This document shows, piece by piece, positions 32,384 to 43,513 of a stretch of 64,000 nucleotides of DNA. The notes beneath the pieces were generated by a model, which was given only the letters and a program-made list of their open reading frames with translations, did not search any database and was not told the origin of the DNA. The DNA lies in NCBI RefSeq assembly GCF_003334405.1, contig NZ_QOWM01000005.1, one strand, 5' to 3'. Position 1 is the first letter of the stretch; every line of letters begins with the position of its first letter. The stretch comes from Escherichia coli (GTDB taxonomy: Bacteria; Pseudomonadota; Gammaproteobacteria; Enterobacterales; Enterobacteriaceae). The position numbers were made by a program, and so were the translations under genes.

Positions 32384-33171
32384 ATGCAAACCATCACCAT
32401 CGCCCCACCCAAGCGCAGCTGGTTCTCGCTTCTGAGCTGGGCCGTTGTACTCGCCGTGTTGGTCGTCTCGTGGCAGGGCGCGGAAATGGCCCCGCTTACG
32501 CTGATCAAAGACGGCGGCAACATGGCGACGTTCGCCGCCGACTTCTTCCCGCCCGATTTCAGCCAGTGGCAGGATTACCTCACCGAAATGGCCGTCACGC
32601 TGCAAATCGCCGTCTGGGGCACCGCGCTGGCGGTGGTTCTCTCCATCCCCTTTGGCCTGATGAGCGCCGAAAACCTGGTGCCGTGGTGGGTTTACCAGCC
32701 CGTTCGCCGCCTGATGGACGCCTGCCGCGCCATTAACGAAATGGTCTTCGCCATGCTGTTCGTGGTCGCCGTCGGCCTCGGCCCGTTCGCTGGCGTGCTG
32801 GCGTGCTGGCGCTGTTTATCCACACCACCGGCGTGCTCTCCAAGCTGCTTTCCGAAGCGGTGGAAGCGATTGAACCCGGCCCGGTGGAAGGCATTCGCGC
32901 CACCGGTGCCAACAAGCTCGAAGAGATCCTCTACGGCGTGCTGCCACAGGTGATGCCACTGCTGATCTCCTACTCCCTCTATCGCTTCGAATCCAACGTC
33001 CGCTCGGCGACCGTCGTCGGCATGGTCGGCGCAGGCGGGATCGGCGTCACCCTGTGGGAAGCGATTCGCGGTTTCCAGTTCCAACAAACCTGCGCCCTGA
33101 TGGTGCTTATCATCGTCACGGTCAGCCTGCTGGATTTCCTCTCTCAACGGTTGCGTAAGCACTTTATCTGA
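32384..33171 (+). pseudogene. phnE: phnE, phosphonate ABC transporter permease, inactivated by a frameshift (K-12 cryptic allele)
   Basis: N-terminal part [19 protein letters not shown]... is in frame with ATG 32384 and stops at 32953; the C-terminal permease portion continues in another frame to 33171; the frame switch coincides with a triple tandem 8-mer (gctggcgt gctggcgt gctggcgc) at 32789-32812. Confidence 0.88.
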
Positions 33172-33191
33172 TAAGCGAGGCATTGATATCT

Positions 33192-33917
33192 ATGCACTTG
33201 TCTACACATCCGACCAGCTACCCAACACGCTATCAAGAGATAGCCGCAAAACTTGAGCAGGAGCTTCGTCAACACTACCGCTGCGGCGACTATCTTCCCG
33301 CCGAGCAGCAACTGGCAGCGCGCTTTGAGGTGAATCGCCACACCCTGCGCCGCGCCATCGACCAACTGGTGGAAAAAGGCTGGGTACAGCGCCGTCAGGG
33401 CGTCGGCGTGCTGGTGCTGATGCGCCCGTTCGATTACCCGCTCAACGCCCAGGCGCGTTTTAGCCAGAATCTGCTGGATCAGGGCAGCCATCCCACCAGC
33501 GAAAAACTGCTTTCGGTATTGCGCCCCGCGTCCGGCCACGTCGCTGACGCACTGGGGATTACCGAGGGGGAGAACGTCATCCACCTGCGCACCCTGCGTC
33601 GTGTCAACGGCGTCGCGCTCTGTTTAATCGACCACTACTTCGCGGACCTCACCCTCTGGCCGACGCTGCAACGCTTCGACAGCGGCTCGCTGCACGATTT
33701 TCTGCGCGAGCAAACCGGAATTGCGCTGCGCCGCAGCCAGACGCGGATCAGCGCCCGCCGCGCCCAGGCCAAAGAGTGCCAGCGTCTTGAAATCCCGAAT
33801 ATGTCGCCGCTGCTGTGCGTGCGCACCCTTAACCACCGTGACGGTGAAAGCAGCCCGGCGGAGTACTCCGTCAGCCTGACGCGCGCCGACATGATTGAAT
33901 TCACTATGGAGCACTGA
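33192..33917 (+). CDS. phnF: GntR-family repressor PhnF (241 aa)
   Basis: N-terminal winged HTH plus UTRA domain; start at internal ATG 33192. Confidence 0.92.
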   Translation: MHLSTHPTSYPTRYQEIAAKLEQELRQHYRCGDYLPAEQQLAARFEVNRHTLRRAIDQLVEKGWVQRRQGVGVLVLMRPFDYPLNAQARFSQNLLDQGSHPTSEKLLSVLRPASGHVADALGITEGENVIHLRTLRRVNGVALCLIDHYFADLTLWPTLQRFDSGSLHDFLREQTGIALRRSQTRISARRAQAKECQRLEIPNMSPLLCVRTLNHRDGESSPAEYSVSLTRADMIEFTMEH

Positions 33918-34370
33918 ATGCACGCAGATACCGCGACCCGCCAGCACTGGATGTCCGTGCTGGCGCACAGCCAACCGGCTGAACTGGCAGCACGCCTGAA
34001 CGCGCTAAACATCACCGCCGACTATGAGGTGATCCGCGCCGCTGAAACTGGCCTGGTACAGATTCAGGCGCGGATGGGCGGCACCGGCGAACGTTTTTTT
34101 GCCGGCGACGCCACGCTGACCCGCGCCGCCGTGCGCCTGACTGACGGCACGCTCGGCTACAGCTGGGTGCAGGGGCGTGATAAACAGCACGCCGAACGCT
34201 GCGCGCTGATTGACGCGCTGATGCAGCAATCTCGCCACTTTCAAAACTTATCAGAAACCCTTATTGCCCCGCTGGACGCTGACCGTATGGCACGCATTGC
34301 CGCACGCCAGGCCGAAGTGAACGCCAGCCGGGTCGACTTCTTTACGATGGTTCGCGGAGACAACGCATGA
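33918..34370 (+). CDS. phnG: C-P lyase core complex subunit PhnG (150 aa)
   Basis: Operon position and length; start directly abuts the phnF stop. Confidence 0.93.
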
Positions 34371-34951
34371 CCCTGGAAACCGCTTTTATGCTTCCCGTGC
34401 AGGATGCCCAGCACAGTTTTCGTCGCCTGTTAAAGGCCATGAGCGAGCCGGGCGTGATTGTCGCCCTGCATCAGCTCAAACGCGGCTGGCAACCGCTGAA
34501 TATCGCCACCACCAGCGTGCTGCTGACGCTGGCCGATAACGACACGCCGGTGTGGCTTTCTACCCCATTAAATAACGATATCGTCAACCAGAGCCTGCGT
34601 TTTCATACCAACGCGCCGCTGGTCAGCCAGCCGGAACAGGCGACCTTCGCGGTGACGGATGAGGCGATTTCCAGCGAACAGCTCAACGCCCTTTCCACCG
34701 GCACCGCCGTTGCGCCGGAAGCGGGTGCGACGCTGATTTTACAGGTCGCCAGCCTGAGCGGCGGACGCATGTTGCGCCTTACTGGTGCGGGTATTGCCGA
34801 AGAACGAATGATCGCTCCGCAGCTGCCGGAGTGCATTCTGCACGAACTCACCGAGCGCCCGCATCCGTTCCCGCTCGGCATCGACCTGATCCTGACCTGT
34901 GGCGAGCGCCTGCTGGCTATTCCGCGAACCACTCATGTGGAGGTGTGCTGA
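34367..34951 (+). CDS. phnH: C-P lyase core complex subunit PhnH (194 aa)
   Basis: Operon position and length; overlaps the phnG stop by 4 bp. Confidence 0.93.
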
Positions 34952-36015
34952 TGTACGTTGCCGTGAAAGGGGGCGAGAAGGCGATCGACGCCGCCCACGC
35001 CCTGCAAGAGAGCCGACGCCGAGGCGATACCGATTTGCCCGAACTGAGCGTCGCCCAGATTGAACAGCAGCTTAACCTCGCGGTAGATCGCGTGATGACC
35101 GAAGGCGGCATTGCCGACCGCGAACTGGCGGCGCTGGCGCTGAAACAGGCCAGCGGCGATAACGTTGAAGCGATTTTCCTGCTGCGCGCCTACCGCACCA
35201 CGTTGGCGAAGCTGGCGGTAAGCGAGCCGCTCGACACCACCGGGATGCGTCTCGAACGCCGTATCTCCGCCGTTTATAAAGACATTCCCGGCGGCCAGCT
35301 GCTTGGCCCAACCTACGACTACACCCATCGCCTGCTCGATTTTACCCTGCTGGCAAACGGCGAAGCGCCGACGCTGACCACCGCCGACAGCGAACAGCAG
35401 CCGTCGCCGCACGTTTTCAGCCTGCTGGCGCGTCAGGGGCTGGCGAAGTTTGAAGAGGATAGCGGCGCACAGCCGGATGACATCACCCGCACGCCGCCGG
35501 TTTACCCCTGCTCACGCTCCTCCCGTTTGCAGCAGTTGATGCGCGGCGACGAAGGCTATTTGCTGGCGCTGGCCTACTCCACCCAACGCGGTTACGGGCG
35601 CAATCACCCGTTCGCAGGCGAGATCCGCAGCGGCTATATCGACGTGTCGATTGTGCCGGAAGAGCTGGGATTTGCGGTGAACGTCGGCGAACTGCTGATG
35701 ACTGAGTGTGAAATGGTTAACGGTTTTATCGACCCGCCGGGTGAGCCGCCGCACTTCACGCGCGGCTACGGGCTGGTGTTCGGCATGAGCGAGCGCAAAG
35801 CGATGGCGATGGCGCTGGTCGACCGCGCTCTGCAAGCCCCGGAGTACGGCGAGCACGCGACAGGCCCGGCGCAGGATGAAGAGTTCGTGCTGGCACATGC
35901 CGACAACGTCGAAGCCGCAGGCTTTGTCTCACACCTCAAACTCCCCCACTACGTCGATTTCCAGGCCGAACTGGAGCTACTCAAACGTCTGCAACAGGAG
36001 CAGAACCATGGCTAA
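34951..36015 (+). CDS. phnI: C-P lyase subunit PhnI, nucleosidase/ribosyl-transfer step (354 aa)
   Basis: Translation [26 protein letters not shown]...; start ATG 34951 shares a base with the phnH stop codon; the ORF-track start at 34831 is an extension. Confidence 0.92.
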   Translation: MYVAVKGGEKAIDAAHALQESRRRGDTDLPELSVAQIEQQLNLAVDRVMTEGGIADRELAALALKQASGDNVEAIFLLRAYRTTLAKLAVSEPLDTTGMRLERRISAVYKDIPGGQLLGPTYDYTHRLLDFTLLANGEAPTLTTADSEQQPSPHVFSLLARQGLAKFEEDSGAQPDDITRTPPVYPCSRSSRLQQLMRGDEGYLLALAYSTQRGYGRNHPFAGEIRSGYIDVSIVPEELGFAVNVGELLMTECEMVNGFIDPPGEPPHFTRGYGLVFGMSERKAMAMALVDRALQAPEYGEHATGPAQDEEFVLAHADNVEAAGFVSHLKLPHYVDFQAELELLKRLQQEQNHG

Positions 36016-36853
36016 TCTGAGCGGCTACAACTTTGCCTACCTCGACGAGCAGACCAAACGCATGATCCGCCGCGCCATCTTAAAAGCGGTGGCGATCCCC
36101 GGTTATCAGGTGCCGTTTGGCGGGCGCGAGATGCCGATGCCGTACGGCTGGGGAACCGGCGGCATTCAGCTTACCGCCAGCGTGATTGGCGAAAGCGACG
36201 TGCTGAAGGTGATTGACCAGGGCGCGGATGACACCACCAACGCCGTGTCGATTCGCAACTTCTTCAAGCGCGTGACCGGGGTAAACACCACGGAACGTAC
36301 GGACGATGCGACGGTTATCCAGACGCGTCACCGCATCCCCGAAACGCCGCTGACCGAAGATCAGATAATTATCTTCCAGGTGCCAATCCCCGAGCCGCTG
36401 CGCTTTATCGAGCCGCGCGAAACGGAAACCCGCACCATGCACGCGCTGGAAGAGTACGGCGTGATGCAGGTGAAACTGTATGAAGATATCGCCCGCTTCG
36501 GTCATATCGCCACCACCTACGCCTATCCGGTGAAGGTAAATGGGCGCTACGTGATGGACCCGTCGCCGATCCCGAAATTCGATAACCCAAAAATGGACAT
36601 GATGCCCGCCCTGCAACTGTTCGGCGCGGGGCGCGAGAAGCGCATCTATGCGGTGCCGCCGTTTACCCGCGTGGAAAGTCTCGATTTCGACGATCACCCG
36701 TTCACCGTTCAGCAGTGGGATGAGCCATGCGCCATCTGCGGATCGACCCACAGCTATCTTGATGAAGTGGTGCTGGATGACGCCGGAAACCGCATGTTTG
36801 TCTGCTCCGATACCGATTATTGCCGCCAACAGAGCGAGGCAAAAAACCAATGA
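36008..36853 (+). CDS. phnJ: C-P lyase catalytic subunit PhnJ, radical-SAM-like enzyme (281 aa)
   Basis: Translation MANLSGYNFAYLDEQTKRMIRRAILKAVAIPGYQVPFGG...; four-Cys cluster CAICGSTHSYLDEVVLDDAGNRMFVCSDTDYC near the C-terminus. Confidence 0.93.
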   Translation: MANLSGYNFAYLDEQTKRMIRRAILKAVAIPGYQVPFGGREMPMPYGWGTGGIQLTASVIGESDVLKVIDQGADDTTNAVSIRNFFKRVTGVNTTERTDDATVIQTRHRIPETPLTEDQIIIFQVPIPEPLRFIEPRETETRTMHALEEYGVMQVKLYEDIARFGHIATTYAYPVKVNGRYVMDPSPIPKFDNPKMDMMPALQLFGAGREKRIYAVPPFTRVESLDFDDHPFTVQQWDEPCAICGSTHSYLDEVVLDDAGNRMFVCSDTDYCRQQSEAKNQ

Positions 36854-37608
36854 ATCAACCGTTACTTTCGGTCAATAACCTGACCCACCTTTACGCGCCG
36901 GGCAAAGGCTTTAGCGATGTCTCTTTTGATTTATGGCCGGGGGAAGTGCTGGGCATTGTCGGGGAATCCGGCTCCGGGAAGACCACGCTGCTGAAGTCGA
37001 TCTCCGCGCGCCTGACGCCGCAGCAGGGGGAAATTCACTACGAGAACCGTTCGCTGTATGCAATGAGCGAGGCCGACCGCCGTCGCCTGCTGCGTACCGA
37101 ATGGGGCGTGGTGCATCAGCATCCACTCGACGGCCTGCGCCGCCAGGTGTCGGCGGGCGGCAATATCGGCGAGCGGCTGATGGCGACCGGGGCACGTCAT
37201 TACGGCGATATTCGTGCCACCGCGCAGAAGTGGCTGGAAGAGGTGGAGATTCCCGCCAACCGGATCGACGACCTGCCGACCACCTTTTCCGGCGGTATGC
37301 AGCAGCGTTTGCAGATTGCCCGCAACCTGGTGACGCATCCGAAGCTGGTGTTTATGGATGAACCGACCGGCGGGCTGGATGTGTCGGTGCAGGCCCGCCT
37401 GCTCGACCTGCTGCGCGGCCTGGTGGTGGAGCTGAACCTCGCGGTGGTGATTGTCACCCATGATTTAGGCGTCGCCCGCCTGCTGGCGGACCGTTTGCTG
37501 GTGATGAAGCAGGGGCAAGTGGTGGAGAGTGGGTTAACCGACCGCGTGCTCGACGACCCGCATCATCCGTATACACAGCTGCTGGTGTCATCGGTTTTGC
37601 AGAATTGA
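36850..37608 (+). CDS. phnK: C-P lyase associated ATP-binding protein PhnK (252 aa)
   Basis: Walker [10 protein letters not shown], signature FSGGMQQR; start [15 protein letters not shown] overlaps the phnJ stop. Confidence 0.93.
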
Positions 37609-37610
37609 GC

Positions 37611-37700
<90 letters not shown>

Positions 37701-37718
37701 CGAACCACGAGGCGAAAA

Positions 37719-38399
37719 ATGATTAACGTACAAAACGTCAGTAAAACCTTCATCCTGCACCAGCAAAACGGCGTGCGCCTGCCCGTCCTCAATCGCGCCT
37801 CGCTCACCGTCAACGCGGGCGAATGCGTGGTGCTCCACGGCCATTCCGGCAGCGGCAAATCAACTCTGCTACGCTCGCTGTACGCCAACTATCTGCCCGA
37901 CGAAGGTCAAATCCAGATCAAACACGGTGACGAGTGGGTAGACCTGGTCACCGCGCCAGCGCGCAAAGTGGTGGAAATCCGCAAAACCACCGTCGGCTGG
38001 GTGAGCCAGTTTCTGCGCGTCATCCCGCGTATCTCAGCACTGGAAGTGGTGATGCAGCCGCTGCTCGATACCGGCGTTCCGCGTGAAGCCTGCGCCGCTA
38101 AAGCCGCGCGTCTTCTCACCCGCCTGAACGTGCCGGAACGCCTGTGGCACCTGGCACCATCGACATTTTCCGGTGGCGAACAGCAGCGCGTCAACATCGC
38201 CCGCGGCTTTATCGTCGACTACCCCATTCTGCTGCTTGACGAACCTACCGCCTCGCTGGACGCCAAAAACAGCGCCGCGGTGGTGGAACTGATTCGCGAA
38301 GCCAAAACCCGTGGCGCAGCCATCGTAGGCATCTTCCATGACGAAGCTGTACGTAATGACGTCGCCGACCGCCTGCACCCAATGGGAGCCTCTTCATGA
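37719..38399 (+). CDS. phnL: C-P lyase associated ATP-binding protein PhnL (226 aa)
   Basis: Translation [21 protein letters not shown]..., Walker [10 protein letters not shown]; the ORF-track start at 37605 runs through the REP element. Confidence 0.93.
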
Positions 38400-39532
38400 T
38401 TATCAATAACGTTAAGCTGGTGCTGGAAAACGAGGTGGTAAGCGGTTCGCTGGAGGTGCAGAACGGCGAAATCCGCGCCTTTGCCGAAAGCCAGAGCCGC
38501 CTGCCGGAGGCGATGGACGGCGAAGGCGGCTGGCTGCTGCCGGGGCTGATTGAGCTGCATACCGATAATCTGGATAAATTCTTCACCCCGCGCCCGAAAG
38601 TTGACTGGCCTGCCCACTCGGCGATGAGCAGCCACGACGCGCTGATGGTGGCGAGCGGCATCACCACCGTACTGGATGCCGTGGCAATTGGCGACGTGCG
38701 CGACGGCGGCGATCGGCTGGAGAATCTGGAGAAGATGATCAACGCCATCGAAGAGACGCAGAAACGCGGCGTCAACCGCGCCGAGCACCGTCTGCATCTG
38801 CGCTGCGAACTGCCGCATCACACCACGCTGCCGCTGTTTGAAAAACTGGTGCAGCGCGAGCCGGTGACGCTGGTGTCGCTGATGGACCACTCGCCGGGCC
38901 AGCGCCAGTTCGCCAACCGCGAGAAGTATCGCGAATATTATCAGGGCAAATACTCCCTCACTGATGCGCAGATGCAGCAGTACGAAGAAGAGCAACTGGC
39001 GCTCGCCGCACGCTGGTCGCAGCCGAATCGCGAATCCATCGCCGCCCTGTGCCGCGCGCGAAAAATTGCGCTTGCCAGCCACGATGACGCCACCCACGCC
39101 CACGTTGCTGAATCTCACCAGCTTGGCAGCGTGATCGCCGAATTTCCCACCACGTTCGAAGCGGCGGAAGCCTCGCGCAAGCATGGCATGAACGTGCTGA
39201 TGGGCGCGCCGAATATTGTGCGCGGCGGCTCGCACTCCGGCAACGTGGCGGCCAGTGAACTGGCGCAGCTTGGCCTGCTGGATATCCTCTCTTCCGACTA
39301 CTACCCCGCCAGCCTGCTCGATGCGGCATTTCGCGTCGCCGATGACCAGAGCAACCGCTTTACGCTGCCGCAGGCGGTGAAGCTGGTGACTAAAAATCCA
39401 GCGCAGGCGCTTAATCTCCAGGATCGCGGGGTGATTGGCGAGGGCAAACGCGCCGACCTGGTGCTGGCGCATCGCAAGGACAATCATATTCATATCGACC
39501 ACGTCTGGCGTCAGGGTAAAAGGGTGTTCTGA
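38396..39532 (+). CDS. phnM: PhnM, amidohydrolase-family pyrophosphohydrolase of the C-P lyase pathway (378 aa)
   Basis: Amidohydrolase-type metal-binding motifs (ELHTDN); operon position. Confidence 0.93.
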
Positions 39533-40089
39533 TGATGGGAAAACTGATTTGGTTAATGGGGCCGTCCGGCTCCGGGAAAGACAGCCTGCTGGCGGAACTC
39601 CGCCTGCGGGAACAAACTCAGTTACTGGTGGCGCATCGCTACATCACGCGCGATGCCAGCGCCGGAAGTGAAAACCATATCGCCCTGAGCGAGCAGGAGT
39701 TTTTTACCCGCGCGGGGCAAAATCTGTTGGCCTTAAGCTGGCACGCTAACGGTCTGTATTATGGCGTCGGCGTCGAGATTGATCTCTGGCTGCACGCCGG
39801 ATTCGACGTGCTGGTCAACGGCTCACGCGCCCATCTGCCGCAGGCGCGGGCGCGCTATCAATCGGCGCTGCTGCCCGTCTGTTTACAGGTTTCGCCGGAG
39901 ATCCTCCGCCAGCGCCTGGAAAACCGTGGCCGTGAAAACGCCAGTGAAATTAACGCCCGCCTGGCGCGCGCCGCCCGCTATACTCCACAGGATTGCCATA
40001 CGCTCAACAATGACGGCAGCCTGCGCCAGTCGGTCGACACGCTGCTGACGCTGATCCATCAGAAGGAGAAACACCATGCCTGCTTGTGA
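39532..40089 (+). CDS. phnN: Ribose 1,5-bisphosphate phosphokinase PhnN (185 aa)
   Basis: P-loop GPSGSGKDS; start ATG shares one base with the phnM stop. Confidence 0.93.
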
Positions 40090-40510
40090 GCTTCGCCCGG
40101 CCACGCAGTACGACACCGACGCGGTTTACGCGCTGATTTGTGAGCTAAAACAGGCGGAGTTTGACCACCACGCGTTTCGCGTGGGTTTTAACGCCAATCT
40201 GCGCGACCCAAACATGCGCTACCATCTGGCGCTGCTTGATGGCGAAGTTGTCGGCATGATCGGCCTGCATTTGCAGTTTCATCTGCATCATGTCAACTGG
40301 ATCGGCGAAATTCAGGAGTTGGTGGTAATGCCGCAGGCGCGCGGTCTGAACGTCGGCAGTAAGTTACTGGCGTGGGCAGAAGAAGAAGCCCGCCAGGCCG
40401 GGGCCGAAATGACCGAACTTTCGACCAACGTGAAGCGCCACGACGCGCACCGTTTCTATCTGCGCGAAGGCTACGAGCAGAGCCACTTCCGCTTCACCAA
40501 GGCGCTGTAA
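40076..40510 (+). CDS. phnO: Aminoalkylphosphonate N-acetyltransferase PhnO (144 aa, GNAT)
   Basis: GNAT fold; overlaps the phnN end by 14 bp. Confidence 0.93.
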
Positions 40511-40511
40511 C

Positions 40512-41270
40512 ATGAGCCTGACCCTCACGCTCACCGGCACCGGCGGCGCACAGGGCGTTCCGGCATGGGGCTGCGAGTGTGCGGCCTGCGCCAGAGCGCG
40601 GCGCTCGCCGCAGTATCGCCGCCAACCGTGCAGCGGCGTAGTGAAGTTTAACGACGCAATCACCCTGATCGACGCCGGGCTGCACGATCTCGCCGATCGC
40701 TGGTCGCCCGGATCGTTCCAGCAGTTTTTGCTGACGCATTATCATATGGATCACGTCCAGGGGCTGTTTCCGCTGCGCTGGGGCGTTGGCGATCCGATCC
40801 CGGTTTACGGCCCGCCGGATGAACAGGGCTGCGACGATCTGTTTAAACATCCGGGCCTGCTTGATTTCAGCCACACGGTGGAACCGTTTGTGGTGTTTGA
40901 TTTGCAGGGGTTACAGGTCACGCCCCTGCCGCTCAACCACTCAAAACTGACCTTCGGTTATCTGCTGGAAACGGCACACAGCCGGGTGGCGTGGCTGTCT
41001 GACACCGCAGGCTTGCCGGAAAAAACGCTGAAATTTTTACGCAATAATCAGCCGCAGGTAATGGTGATGGATTGCAGTCACCCGCCGCGCGCGGATGCAC
41101 CGCGTAATCACTGTGATTTAAATACCGTGCTTGCGCTGAATCAGGTTATCCGCTCGCCACGGGTGATTCTGACCCATATCAGCCACCAGTTTGATGCGTG
41201 GCTGATGGAAAACGCACTACCGTCAGGGTTTGAGGTGGGGTTTGATGGGATGGAGATTGGGGTGGCGTGA
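40512..41270 (+). CDS. phnP: PhnP, metallo-beta-lactamase-fold cyclic phosphodiesterase (252 aa)
   Basis: HxHxDH motif (THYHMDH); last gene of the operon. Confidence 0.93.
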
Positions 41271-41292
41271 TGAGAGGGAATGTGCGCGCTGG

Positions 41293-41395
41293 CCCCCTCA
41301 CCCTAACCCTCTCCCCAGAGGGGCGAGGGGACCGATTGTGCTCGATATTGAATATTGCGCTCGTTTTCTCCCTCTCCCCATTGGGGTGAGGGGCG
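41293..41395. repeat. Two copies of a GC-rich palindromic repeat between convergent phnP and yjdP
   Basis: caccctaaccctctccccagaggggcgaggggacc (41293-41331) and ctccctctccccattggggtgaggggcga (41367-41395); same family as the element at 14077-14115. Confidence 0.65.
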
Positions 41396-41416
41396 ATGCC
41401 TGCTCCATACCCAACC

Positions 41417-41746
41417 TCATCGCCCATACTCATCTTCCATTCTCCGCTCTTCATCCTCCAGTTGCCGACGCTCCTGATCAAGCTGGCGCTGGCGATCGTC
41501 CAGCTGCCTGCGGCGATCTTCAAACTGGCGGCGGCGGTCGTCATATTGTCTGCGCCGATCGTCGCTCACTTCACGCTGCCAGCCGTCGTCGCGCGAATCT
41601 TCATAGTCTCGCCCACGGTCAGGGTTATAAGCGTCATTAATCGCCTGCTGAATATTGCCAATGGTGTCGTCGATAATATCGGCCTGGGCCGGAACGGTGG
41701 ACAGCGTGAGCAGGGTGAATAAAAGAAATAGCGGAAAGCGTTTCAT
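41417..41746 (-). CDS. yjdP: Secreted low-complexity protein YjdP (109 aa) with charged R/Q/D/E repeats
   Basis: Signal peptide MKRFPLFLLFTLLTLSTVPAQA followed by repeats of the form DDRRRQ(Y/F/L); function unknown. Confidence 0.8.
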   Translation of the reverse strand: MKRFPLFLLFTLLTLSTVPAQADIIDDTIGNIQQAINDAYNPDRGRDYEDSRDDGWQREVSDDRRRQYDDRRRQFEDRRRQLDDRQRQLDQERRQLEDEERRMEDEYGR

Positions 41747-41814
41747 TAGCCAACCTCAAAAAGAAACTCTATCCACATTAATCATTACTCATCCATGCAA
41801 GTAGTGGATGAATC

Positions 41815-42264
41815 TCAATTTCTCCGCTGCTCTATTGCCGTAATCGCCTCCACGCGTTGTTGATGACGACCGCCTTCGTACTGTGCGCCCAGCCACGCAT
41901 CCACAATCATTTTTGCCAGTTCGAGGCCAACCACTCGTGAACCAAAAGCCAGCACGTTGGTGTCGTTATGCTGCCGCGAAAGTTGCGCGGAATAAGGTTC
42001 GCTACAGACGACCGCGCGAATTCCGGCAAACTTGTTCGCCGCTATCGAAATACCGACGCCAGTACCACAAATCAAAATCCCGCCATCAACCTCTCCGCCA
42101 GCAACAGCCAGTGCGACTTGACTGGCGTAATGTGGATAATCAGTACGCTCTGACGACCAGGTTCCTTTATCAATCACTTCAACGCCACGCTCAACTAAAT
42201 GTGCCACTATTTCATGTTTTAAAATGAAACCGACATGATCACAGCCAAATGCAATCTTTTTCAT
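41815..42264 (-). CDS. rpiB: Ribose-5-phosphate / allose-6-phosphate isomerase B (149 aa)
   Basis: Translation MKKIAFGCDHVGFILKHEIVAHLVERGVEVIDKG... (RpiB/LacAB family). Confidence 0.95.
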   Translation of the reverse strand: MKKIAFGCDHVGFILKHEIVAHLVERGVEVIDKGTWSSERTDYPHYASQVALAVAGGEVDGGILICGTGVGISIAANKFAGIRAVVCSEPYSAQLSRQHNDTNVLAFGSRVVGLELAKMIVDAWLGAQYEGGRHQQRVEAITAIEQRRN

Positions 42265-42622
42265 TCATCTTCCCCGTCCGTGCAAAACTTCACAATCAAA
42301 AAACATTTGTGATGTTAATGAATTAAAAACACCCAAAATCGATGAATTACGCCTTCCTGATCTGTTTTACAGAGTTACATCTGACAGCGCAATAGCGTTA
42401 AAGACACTCACCATCCAGCAACATCTATCATCTAAAAAACCAGAAAAACAAATAACATCATGTTTTTAAACTAATTAAATGAAATAAAATTTTAAGCCAC
42501 TCGCCATTGTTCACAATAAAATAAACTTTATAAATTTTATTTTTTTGTGAAGTCGCCAGCATCTTTTCTGTTCTTGCTGTGGTGATATAGTGGCGTCTTC
42601 AATTCAAGGACAAGAGAACGTG

Positions 42623-43513
42623 ATGAGCCAGTCAGAGTTTGATTCAGCGCTTCCGAACGGTATAGGGTTAGCGCCTTACCTGCGAATGAAGCAGGAAGGA
42701 ATGACAGAAAATGAAAGCCGCATCGTGGAGTGGTTACTCAAACCCGGTAACCTGAGTTGTGCACCCGCAATTAAAGATGTCGCAGAAGCTCTGGCGGTAT
42801 CTGAAGCGATGATAGTTAAGGTATCAAAGCTGCTGGGGTTTAGCGGCTTTCGTAACTTACGCAGTGCGCTGGAAGATTATTTTTCTCAGTCAGAACAGGT
42901 ATTGCCTTCCGAGTTGGCTTTTGATGAAGCGCCGCAGGATGTGGTGAATAAGGTATTTAACATCACTTTACGCACCATTATGGAAGGTCAGTCGATCGTC
43001 AACGTTGATGAGATCCACCGTGCCGCCCGCTTTTTCTATCAGGCCAGACAGCGGGATTTGTACGGTGCCGGAGGATCAAATGCTATCTGTGCTGATGTAC
43101 AGCACAAGTTCTTGCGCATTGGCGTACGCTGTCAGGCCTATCCTGATGCTCACATCATGATGATGTCCGCTTCGTTGTTACAGGAAGGAGATGTTGTGCT
43201 GGTAGTGACCCATTCCGGGCGAACCAGTGATGTAAAAGCGGCCGTAGAACTGGCAAAAAAGAACGGGGCAAAGATTATTTGTATAACCCATAGCTACCAT
43301 TCACCGATAGCGAAACTGGCCGATTATATTATTTGCTCACCAGCCCCGGAAACGCCGTTATTAGGTCGTAATGCCTCGGCAAGAATATTACAACTAACTT
43401 TGCTGGACGCTTTTTTTGTCTCTGTCGCCCAGCTCAACATTGAACAAGCTAATATTAATATGCAAAAAACCGGCGCAATTGTTGATTTCTTCTCACCAGG
43501 CGCGCTGAAATAA
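42623..43513 (+). CDS. rpiR: RpiR/AlsR transcriptional repressor, HTH plus SIS domain (296 aa)
   Basis: Translation from MSQSEFDSALPNGIGLAPYLRMK; start at internal ATG 42623. Confidence 0.9.
   Translation: MSQSEFDSALPNGIGLAPYLRMKQEGMTENESRIVEWLLKPGNLSCAPAIKDVAEALAVSEAMIVKVSKLLGFSGFRNLRSALEDYFSQSEQVLPSELAFDEAPQDVVNKVFNITLRTIMEGQSIVNVDEIHRAARFFYQARQRDLYGAGGSNAICADVQHKFLRIGVRCQAYPDAHIMMMSASLLQEGDVVLVVTHSGRTSDVKAAVELAKKNGAKIICITHSYHSPIAKLADYIICSPAPETPLLGRNASARILQLTLLDAFFVSVAQLNIEQANINMQKTGAIVDFFSPGALK

Follow-up and report, generated by a model that had tools for sequence, protein, structure and literature searches.

Two blocks of tightly packed genes in the phn operon of Escherichia coli flank a phnK/phnL gap occupied by a REP pair

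Termination-reinitiation coupling has been shown in E. coli gene pairs with the -4, -1 and -8 overlap configurations (PMC10666635). According to the same survey 707 of 2987 genome-wide E. coli pairs (24%) lie within -8 to +6 nt, and such short-distance pairs are 4.5-fold enriched among the genes of heteromeric complexes. In the three native pairs tested, hyfHI, ydbH-ynbE and menDH, re-initiation was reduced by 80-100% at a distance of +38 nt (PMC10666635). The phn genes share with the coupled pairs of Huber et al. (2019, 2023) the ATGA, TGATG and -8 overlaps, a Shine-Dalgarno (SD) motif within the upstream gene and the enrichment among complex subunits; PhnGHIJK(L) form a complex, Phn(GHIJKL)2 (PMC9947105). 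The supplementary tables of Huber et al. 2023 (PMC10666635) themselves list the phn distances. Yet the experimentally tested E. coli pairs did not include phn, and phnN/phnO with a distance of -14 falls outside their -8 to +10 class.

The phnK/phnL gap resembles two other described systems. As cited in PMC12306157, the intercistronic REP/BIME elements of malE-malF and hisJ-hisQ (Higgins et al. 1982; Newbury et al. 1987) are REP pairs between cistrons of one operon, placed directly after a stop codon and forming a stable hairpin without U-tract. All of this is shared by phnK/phnL, where the hairpin is predicted, but there another repeat family takes the site in about 10% of E. coli genomes. REPs less than 16 nt from a stop codon can reduce translation upstream of them (Liang et al. 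2015, summarised in PMC12306157), and structures just past stop codons insulate against re-initiation (PMC7518266). With the ribosome termination structure (RTS) of Chemla et al. (2020) the gap has in common a stable structure a few nt past the stop and a spacer of more than 25 nt, so that re-initiation would be blocked. However, the RTS was defined statistically and in a synthetic operon, whereas the predicted phnK/phnL structure comes from a mobile repeat.

The window, i.e. the whole stretch of 64,000 nt of E. coli DNA that was analysed, aligned collinearly with the annotated record (99.9% identity). Positions 33192-41270 correspond to phnF-phnP with 1 mismatch in 8079 nt to K-12 MG1655, and many E. 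coli chromosomes matched the region at 100% in megablast. The genes follow the order phnF-G-H-I-J-K-L-M-N-O-P of the E. coli phn C-P lyase operon with orthologous proteins, and G, H, K, L, M, N, O and P matched NCBIfam equivalogs above cut-off. The segment is thus phnF-phnP of the 14-gene Pho-regulated phnCDEFGHIJKLMNOP operon in a K-12-like allele. The operon of K-12 and B has the same genes, order and annotated junction distances as the window, with no substantive difference. Outside the operon, the yjdM-yjdN REP325 repeat has 4 copies in the window versus 6 in MG1655. Gene coordinates were taken from the PGAP and the MG1655 annotation and the junctions were then read from the sequence.

33192-33917, plus strand: phnF, GntR-type regulator (annotation and sequence)
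33918-34370, plus strand: phnG, core complex subunit (NCBIfam TIGR03293)
34367-34951, plus strand: phnH (annotation, sequence and NCBIfam profile)
34951-36015, plus strand: phnI, equal to PDB 4xb6_C over residues 1-354 (4xb6/7z15 chains 1-354)
36008-36853, plus strand: phnJ, C-P lyase radical-SAM subunit (PF06007)
36850-37608, plus strand: phnK, ABC ATPase bound to PhnJ (TIGR02323), closing the first tight block
37609-37718, plus strand: phnK-phnL spacer of 110 nt with two inverted REPs, then the phnL SD and ATG
37615-37648, plus strand: REP copy 1, GCCGGATGCGGCGTAAACGCCTTATCCGGCCTAC, arms 37615-37628 and 37631-37644
37662-37697, plus strand: REP copy 2, inverted, GTAGGTCGGATAAGACGCGTCAGCGTCGCATCCGAC, arms 37666-37679 and 37684-37697
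37719-38399, plus strand: phnL, second ABC ATPase (TIGR02324, residues 1-218 on profile 1-218; PDB 7z15_K 1-226)
38396-39532, plus strand: phnM (NF011981, residues 1-378 on profile 1-378)
39532-40089, plus strand: phnN, tandem ATGATG start, alternative 39535
40076-40510, plus strand: phnO (NF007530, residues 1-144 on profile 1-144)
40512-41270, plus strand: phnP (TIGR03307), final gene of the operon

The sequence-only reading had described a dense chain of start/stop overlaps, and sequence and annotation bore this out at each tight junction. phnF and phnG abut (TGAATG, distance 0), G/H and L/M overlap by 4 bp (ATGA, -4), H/I and M/N share one base (TGATG, -1), I/J overlap by 8 bp (ATGGCTAA, -8), N/O overlap by 14 bp (ATGCCTGCTTGTGA, -14) and O/P are separated by 1 bp (TAA-C-ATG, +1). 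The overlap of J/K, previously given without a number, is ATGA (-4). Hence the distance was 1 or less at 9 of 10 junctions, the exception being K/L with +110, compared to 10 of 40 other same-strand junctions of the same 64 kb (Fisher p = 2.9e-4). Eight of the ten lie within -8 to +6, with N/O (-14) and K/L (+110) outside; at least 8 of 10 at the genome-wide rate has a binomial p of 2.8e-4. Two blocks result, F-G-H-I-J-K and L-M-N-O-P, inside which each start lies -14 to +1 nt from the upstream stop. As in coupled pairs, the genes are co-directional, with stop and start about -8 to +10 nt apart at eight of the ten junctions, and within the blocks the downstream SD lies inside the upstream coding sequence. 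The phn overlaps were reportedly already remarked on in the original sequencing papers. Their recovery here is correct but ordinary and carries little weight beyond confirmation, since genes with co-produced proteins are typically laid out in this way. The gene boundaries and overlap distances are known from the curated K-12 annotation and the 2023 survey tables (PMC10666635).

Conservation of the junctions was assessed in 80 other species, counted per genus with a distance of 1 or less as the criterion. Overlaps were conserved at G/H (28/43), H/I (36/43), I/J (39/43), J/K (40/44), L/M (32/42) and M/N (23/37), while F/G was tight in 26/30 genera. K/L was tight in 2/44 only; this low figure was obtained by the same start-calling method and shows that the method is not biased towards overlaps. 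A survey of 1,695 prokaryotic species provides an independent match, with a median of +9 for PhnK@PhnL and of -4 or -1 for the other phn COG pairs (PMC10666635 supplement). Some junctions drift between taxa, i.e. F/G from 0 to between +11 and +14 in Pseudomonas, I/J from -8 to -4 and N/P from -10 to -4, and several marine genera have open L/M and M/N junctions.

The earlier claim that only the REP between phnK and phnL breaks the chain holds as a description of E. coli, where the spacer measures 110 nt and contains not one but two inverted REPs. It misleads as to cause. K/L was non-overlapping in 42/44 genera, consistent with the survey median, and REP-less Enterobacteriaceae have a K/L spacer of 7-10 nt, 'TAA GAGGCGAAC ATG', that carries an SD. 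Therefore the K/L break is older than the REP pair and was not caused by it. On these comparisons the pair sits in a pre-existing K/L gap and no overlap was interrupted, a useful correction to the earlier reading.

The K/L element has the properties of a REP/BIME: an imperfect palindrome, about 35 nt long, that agrees with the E. coli REP consensus, many dispersed extragenic copies, a location after the phnK stop and ahead of the phnL SD, and two inverted REPs that pair with each other as a composite element. REP copy 1 had 11 matches in the 64-kb window versus 0 expected by chance, and three REP325 units there have exactly the K/L REP sequence. A 410-nt query comprising the REPs and flanking phnK/phnL sequence matched a median of 27 places per E. 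coli genome. The predicted fold of the spacer RNA had -62.7 kcal/mol (z = -6.7); its stem begins 2-4 nt past the phnK stop and leaves the phnL SD and AUG free. No U-tract was found after the REP hairpin. An Rfam scan of 29000-43000 returned only hits to naRNA4 (REP-derived), sub-threshold at REP copy 2; a scan of the alternative E. coli spacer gave no meaningful hit. This alternative, a different palindromic element of 176 nt, was present in 546 of 5387 phn-positive E. coli genomes (about 10%), the REP pair in 4842. Elements were acquired independently at the site in several genera and comprise REP pairs, a single REP, a triple REP and a CCCTCTCCC/GGGAGAGGG-type element. A new minor detail is that palindromic repeats have landed in the K/L gap repeatedly and that its content varies among E. 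coli genomes, which makes the gap a handy natural test bed for effects of intercistronic REPs on the output of neighbouring proteins.

Taken together, we consider it highly probable that the operon segment consists of two tight, coupled blocks separated by an ancient K/L gap with its own SD, in which a REP pair was gained secondarily. Within the blocks a ribosome ending at a stop codon would re-initiate at the adjacent AUG or would clear structure so that the embedded SD becomes usable. The synthesis of each protein would then depend on, and scale with, translation of its upstream neighbour, which would help to balance the subunits of Phn(GHIJ)2K2(L2). Termination-reinitiation coupling within the phn blocks can soundly be expected from other E. 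coli gene pairs; a full-text literature search for phn and translational coupling found no phn-specific experiment. As an indirect hint of such dependence, a delta-phnO::kan mutation was polar on phnP, transcriptional and translational effects not being separated (PMC3463581). Tight junctions are also found between enzymes outside the complex (M/N, N/O, O/P) and between PhnG and the regulator PhnF, so subunit stoichiometry is not the whole reason for the layout. At the ancient non-overlapping K/L junction PhnL is probably initiated de novo from the SD in the spacer. The inverted REP pair acquired later in E. coli would form a very stable hairpin right after the phnK stop, should block residual re-initiation and may shield the mRNA upstream of it or reduce the amount of PhnK. 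Such a regulatory effect at K/L may exist by analogy with other systems.

Could the REP pair be a selected regulatory device and not just a tolerated insertion? It would divide the operon into a higher-expressed phnC-K and a lower-expressed phnL-P by protection from 3'-exonucleases, by partial termination or by stalling ribosomes at the phnK stop. The very stable hairpin predicted 2-4 nt past the stop fits this proposal, as do the independent gains at the same site and some palindromic element in all phn-positive E. coli, the two counts adding up to about the total. A REP located no more than 15 nt from a stop is also reported to reduce upstream translation (PMC12306157). Furthermore, phosphate-starvation RNA-seq found one large transcript for the phn operon with coverage dropping along it, and in one sample assembly also yielded a phnGHIJK sub-transcript (PMC3734233); a consensus scan for internal promoter- or terminator-like sites in the operon gave no excess over shuffles. 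On the other hand, a bare spacer of 7-10 nt suffices in close relatives, and even within E. coli one element type can stand in for another, as would fit opportunistic insertion at the sole non-coding gap of an otherwise gap-free chain. We therefore hold a selected device to be possible but rather unlikely. A related proposal, which we put forward only tentatively, is that K/L is a conserved, selected decoupling point between coupled blocks GHIJK and LMN(O)P with separable outputs. Since the chain has no other non-coding gap, K/L would also be a hotspot for insertion and replacement of repeats, seen as the 90:10 polymorphism in E. coli, and each element could adjust how much PhnK is made relative to PhnL or how long the upstream mRNA persists.

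The overlaps might also be real but neutral, a product of compaction and drift of stop and start codons with each cistron initiated independently at its own SD. Every junction indeed has its own SD-like motif, -4 and -1 overlaps are the commonest configuration genome-wide (PMC10666635), and the junction type drifts as described, at F/G for example from 0 to +14. In addition, L/M, M/N, N/O and O/P are labelled 'CMPLX not' in the supplement of PMC10666635, i.e. they are tight without a listed shared complex. Against this, H/I, I/J and J/K are tight in 36-40 of 43-44 genera while K/L is open throughout, a junction-specific pattern that is hard to obtain from neutral drift, and downstream translation at native E. 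coli overlaps depends strongly on nearby upstream termination (PMC10666635). We consider neutrality improbable and favor the coupled blocks.

These blocks presuppose correct start codons. All starts from phnF to phnP are ATG with SD-like motifs 4-12 nt upstream, which within the blocks fall inside the 3' end of the gene before; N-termini were conserved and the MG1655 annotation was concordant. The GGAG of phnH is encoded by the conserved C-terminal PhnG codons cgc gga gac, phnO has a strong AAGGAG, and the GAGG of phnL lies in the spacer at 37708-37711. Across genera SD-like 4-mers preceded 81% of junction starts as compared to 8.8% of random internal positions, a statistic that is partly circular since starts in other species were called by a simple scoring model that rewards SD motifs. 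Homologue alignments began at query residue 5 or below in 80-100% of loci for H to P and in 60% for phnG, at residue 1 in 74/74 loci for phnI and at residue 1-2 in 79 loci for phnL. The NCBIfam profiles of L, M and O aligned from residue 1.

The sequence-only reading had named reassigned starts, with loss of the overlaps, as its refutation. When all in-frame ATG, GTG and TTG codons were listed the starts held, and an overlap was lost only at the cost of conserved residues or an SD. That the overlaps are annotation artefacts, with true starts downstream and normal spacers between genes, is thus most improbable: phnH has an in-frame ATG at +21, phnI a GTG at +12 and phnN a second ATG 3 nt downstream, with the PRK10078 profile aligned from residue 2, but SD motifs are absent at the alternative starts, the homologue alignments extend to residues 1-5, relatives have T, N or P in place of Met8 of PhnH (ATG 34388) but keep the ATGA start and GGAG, the next in-frame starts of J, K, O and P lie 54-129 nt downstream within conserved sequence, and phnN stays tight with either start (39532, -1; 39535, +2). 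A longer PhnL reading through the REP was rejected as well. The frame is open from TTG 37605, in a 4-nt overlap with the phnK stop, and includes ATG 37620, but homologues and the TIGR02324 profile begin at the annotated Met, and REP-less relatives have the phnK stop in frame 9 nt upstream.

Upstream of the segment, phnE in the window carries the 8-bp triplication typical of cryptic K-12 alleles, and this frameshift makes the present copy of the operon cryptic for growth on phosphonates. The phnD-phnE spacer of the operon has the classical binding-protein/permease REP arrangement.

At least 80% of window 33000-41400 was present in 5387 of 5426 complete genomes by megablast, and many E. coli chromosomes matched the interval at 100% identity. 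Over the 8079 nt from phnF to phnP (33192-41270), a single nucleotide separates the window from MG1655. Two annotations, that of PGAP for one identical record and the curated one for MG1655, agree on the names phnF through phnP. NCBIfam equivalog models confirmed PhnG, H, K, L, M, N, O and P, PF06007 was found in PhnJ, and PhnI and PhnL matched PDB chains 4xb6_C and 7z15_K, respectively, end to end.

Translation of the annotated coordinates yielded eleven clean ORFs, all with an ATG start. Ahead of each ATG is an SD-like motif, located within the 3' end of the preceding gene. The junction distances claimed by the sequence-only reading for phnF-phnP were all correct when read directly from the sequence.

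Junctions from phnF to phnP: motif; distance from stop to start as read from the sequence (negative, overlap); genera with a median distance of at most 1 nt
F/G: TGAATG; 0 nt; 26/30
G/H: ATGA; -4 nt; 28/43
H/I: TGATG; -1 nt; 36/43
I/J: ATGGCTAA; -8 nt; 39/43
J/K: ATGA; -4 nt; 40/44
K/L: spacer; +110 nt; 2/44
L/M: ATGA; -4 nt; 32/42
M/N: TGATG; -1 nt; 23/37
N/O: ATGCCTGCTTGTGA; -14 nt
O/P: TAA C ATG; +1 nt

Distances of at most 1 nt occurred at 9 of the 10 phnF-P junctions versus 10 of 40 other same-strand junctions of the window (Fisher p = 2.9e-4); the background junctions came from the annotated record, with which the window is collinear at 99.9% identity. Outside phnF-P tight junctions in the window never run longer than two. 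Across the E. coli genome, 24% of unidirectional gene pairs (707 of 2987) fall within -8 to +6 (PMC10666635), a rate at which at least 8 of 10 junctions would have p = 2.8e-4. The overlap density is real, yet such operon-level properties are familiar. The supplement of Huber et al. 2023 gives distances of +1, -14, -1, -4, 110, -4, -8, -1, -4 and 0 for b4092-b4102, the same ten as read here (PMC10666635). The COG-pair table of 1,695 species in that work has medians of -4 for PhnI@PhnJ, PhnJ@PhnK and PhnL@PhnM, of -1 for PhnG@PhnH, PhnH@PhnI and PhnM@PhnN, and of +9 for PhnK@PhnL. Because these tables list both, the overlap layout and the special status of K/L were already on record, and our observation is a confirmation.

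Conservation was assessed in 80 loci of 44 genera obtained by PhnJ alignment (Gamma-, Beta- and Alphaproteobacteria and one Desulfovibrio MAG). Each phn gene was placed by tblastn and its start was called by a simple model using the distance to the extrapolated N-terminus, the start-codon type and the SD. The model recovered all eleven E. coli starts. The same procedure gave 2/44 for K/L, thus it is not biased towards overlaps. SD-like 4-mers were found upstream of 81% of junction starts versus 8.8% at random internal positions, a figure that is partly circular because the model rewards SD motifs.

Reassignment of start codons, which would make the overlaps vanish, was checked by listing every in-frame start candidate for each gene; conserved N-termini and alternatives lacking an SD back the annotated starts. 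The next candidates of phnJ, K, O and P lie 54-129 nt downstream within conserved sequence, while those of phnG, H, I and M have no SD. Where phnH has the alternative Met8, Enterobacter, Leclercia, Cedecea and Citrobacter have Thr, Asn or Pro; relatives retain the ATGA start as well as the GGAG that the conserved C-terminus of PhnG encodes. In tblastn alignments of the E. coli proteins with 80 other species, the first aligned query residue was 5 or lower at 80-100% of the loci for H to P; for phnG the share was 60%. The sole true ambiguity is a tandem ATGATG at phnN (39530-39537), which permits -1 or +2. Most relatives have a single TGATG there, and the extra ATG seems to have been gained in E. 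coli. For phnL, starts at TTG 37605 (4-nt overlap with the phnK stop) or ATG 37620 were rejected. Its frame is open across the whole REP-bearing spacer (37605-37718), which we regard as coincidental because homologues and profiles place the start at the annotated ATG 37719.

It had been proposed that only the REP between phnK and phnL breaks the chain. K/L is indeed the only non-coding site available from phnF to phnP. The REP as the cause of the break did not hold up, since REP-less Enterobacteriaceae keep a spacer of 7-10 nt. Leclercia, for instance, reads TAA GAGGCGAAC ATG and an Enterobacter MAG reads TGA GGCCAAC ATG; the spacers of Pseudomonas and Alphaproteobacteria span roughly 10-30 nt. 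The 110-nt E. coli spacer (37609-37718) retains the flank next to the SD, ...CACGAGGCGAAAA ATG, and holds two inverted REPs (37615-37648 and 37662-37697) between the phnK stop and the phnL SD. The REPs pair as an RNA hairpin of -62.7 kcal/mol (z = -6.7) that starts 2-4 nt past the phnK stop; the SD and AUG of phnL stay unpaired, and no U-tract was found after the hairpin.

In other genera, other insertions occupy the same place: Enterobacter asburiae carries three REPs, strain RIT691 a single one and Citrobacter werkmanii a pair, and in Pseudocitrobacter a CCCTCTCCC/GGGAGAGGG-type element forms an array of 298 nt. The REP-pair allele is carried by 4842 E. coli genomes. In 546 complete genomes (about 10%) a 176-nt palindromic CCCTCTCCC...GGGAGAGGG element of the family that fills the Pseudocitrobacter spacer replaces it, e.g. 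in strain EC21Z-048 (positions 251-426 of locus L082, equivalent to window 37609-37718). Together the two alleles account for essentially all phn-positive E. coli. Given the relatives' spacers and the repeat insertions at the same place, the REP pair sits in a gap older than itself and interrupted no overlap.

Coupling by termination and reinitiation, the other part of the earlier interpretation, is plausible by analogy with other systems, alongside the directly observed geometry, embedded SDs, junction-specific conservation and hairpin. In three native overlapping E. coli pairs, downstream translation fell by 80-100% once the stop of the upstream gene had been shifted to +38 nt, and complex subunits are 4.5-fold enriched among short-distance pairs (PMC10666635). 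PhnG, H, I, J, K and L form Phn(GHIJKL)2 (PMC9947105). Under phosphate starvation the phn operon is one transcript with coverage falling along it, and one sample yielded an assembled phnGHIJK sub-transcript (PMC3734233). Stable structure right after a stop codon insulates against re-initiation (PMC7518266), and REPs at most 15 nt from a stop reportedly reduce upstream translation (Liang et al. 2015, as summarised in PMC12306157). The delta-phnO::kan allele is polar on phnP, where transcription and translation are not separable (PMC3463581). A full-text literature search found no phn-specific coupling experiment. Most probably the operon is translated as two coupled blocks (F-K and L-P), PhnL being initiated de novo; the REP pair would strengthen insulation at K/L and may also shape mRNA decay.

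The first K/L REP had 11 matches in the window versus 0 expected, three identical ones lying in the yjdM-yjdN array. That spacer (29433-29809) contains four tandem 100-bp units matching Rfam naRNA4 (REP325) with 95-111 bits; spacer lengths and alignment offsets imply five copies in FORC_081 and six in MG1655. The yjcO-gltP spacer (59223-59595) has four REP copies with a 113-nt period, and a difference of about 226 nt from FORC_081 suggests that its copy number also varies. A second intercistronic REP pair of the phn operon occupies the phnD-phnE spacer (32279-32383; naRNA4 69 bits, minus strand), its first stem about 4 nt past the phnD stop. The order of binding-protein gene, REP and permease gene is that of the classical malE-malF.

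phnE (32384-33171) is a frameshifted pseudogene with three tandem 8-bp units (GCTGGCGT) at 32788-32811, the cryptic K-12-type allele. For this operon copy to support growth on phosphonate, one repeat would first have to be lost. At the operon's other end, a CCCTCTCCC/GGGAGAGGG-type element (41285-41400; exact 22-mer at 41294-41315, minus strand) lies about 15 nt past the phnP stop. The region folds with -67.6 kcal/mol (z = -3.0) and may be the 3' structure of the operon.
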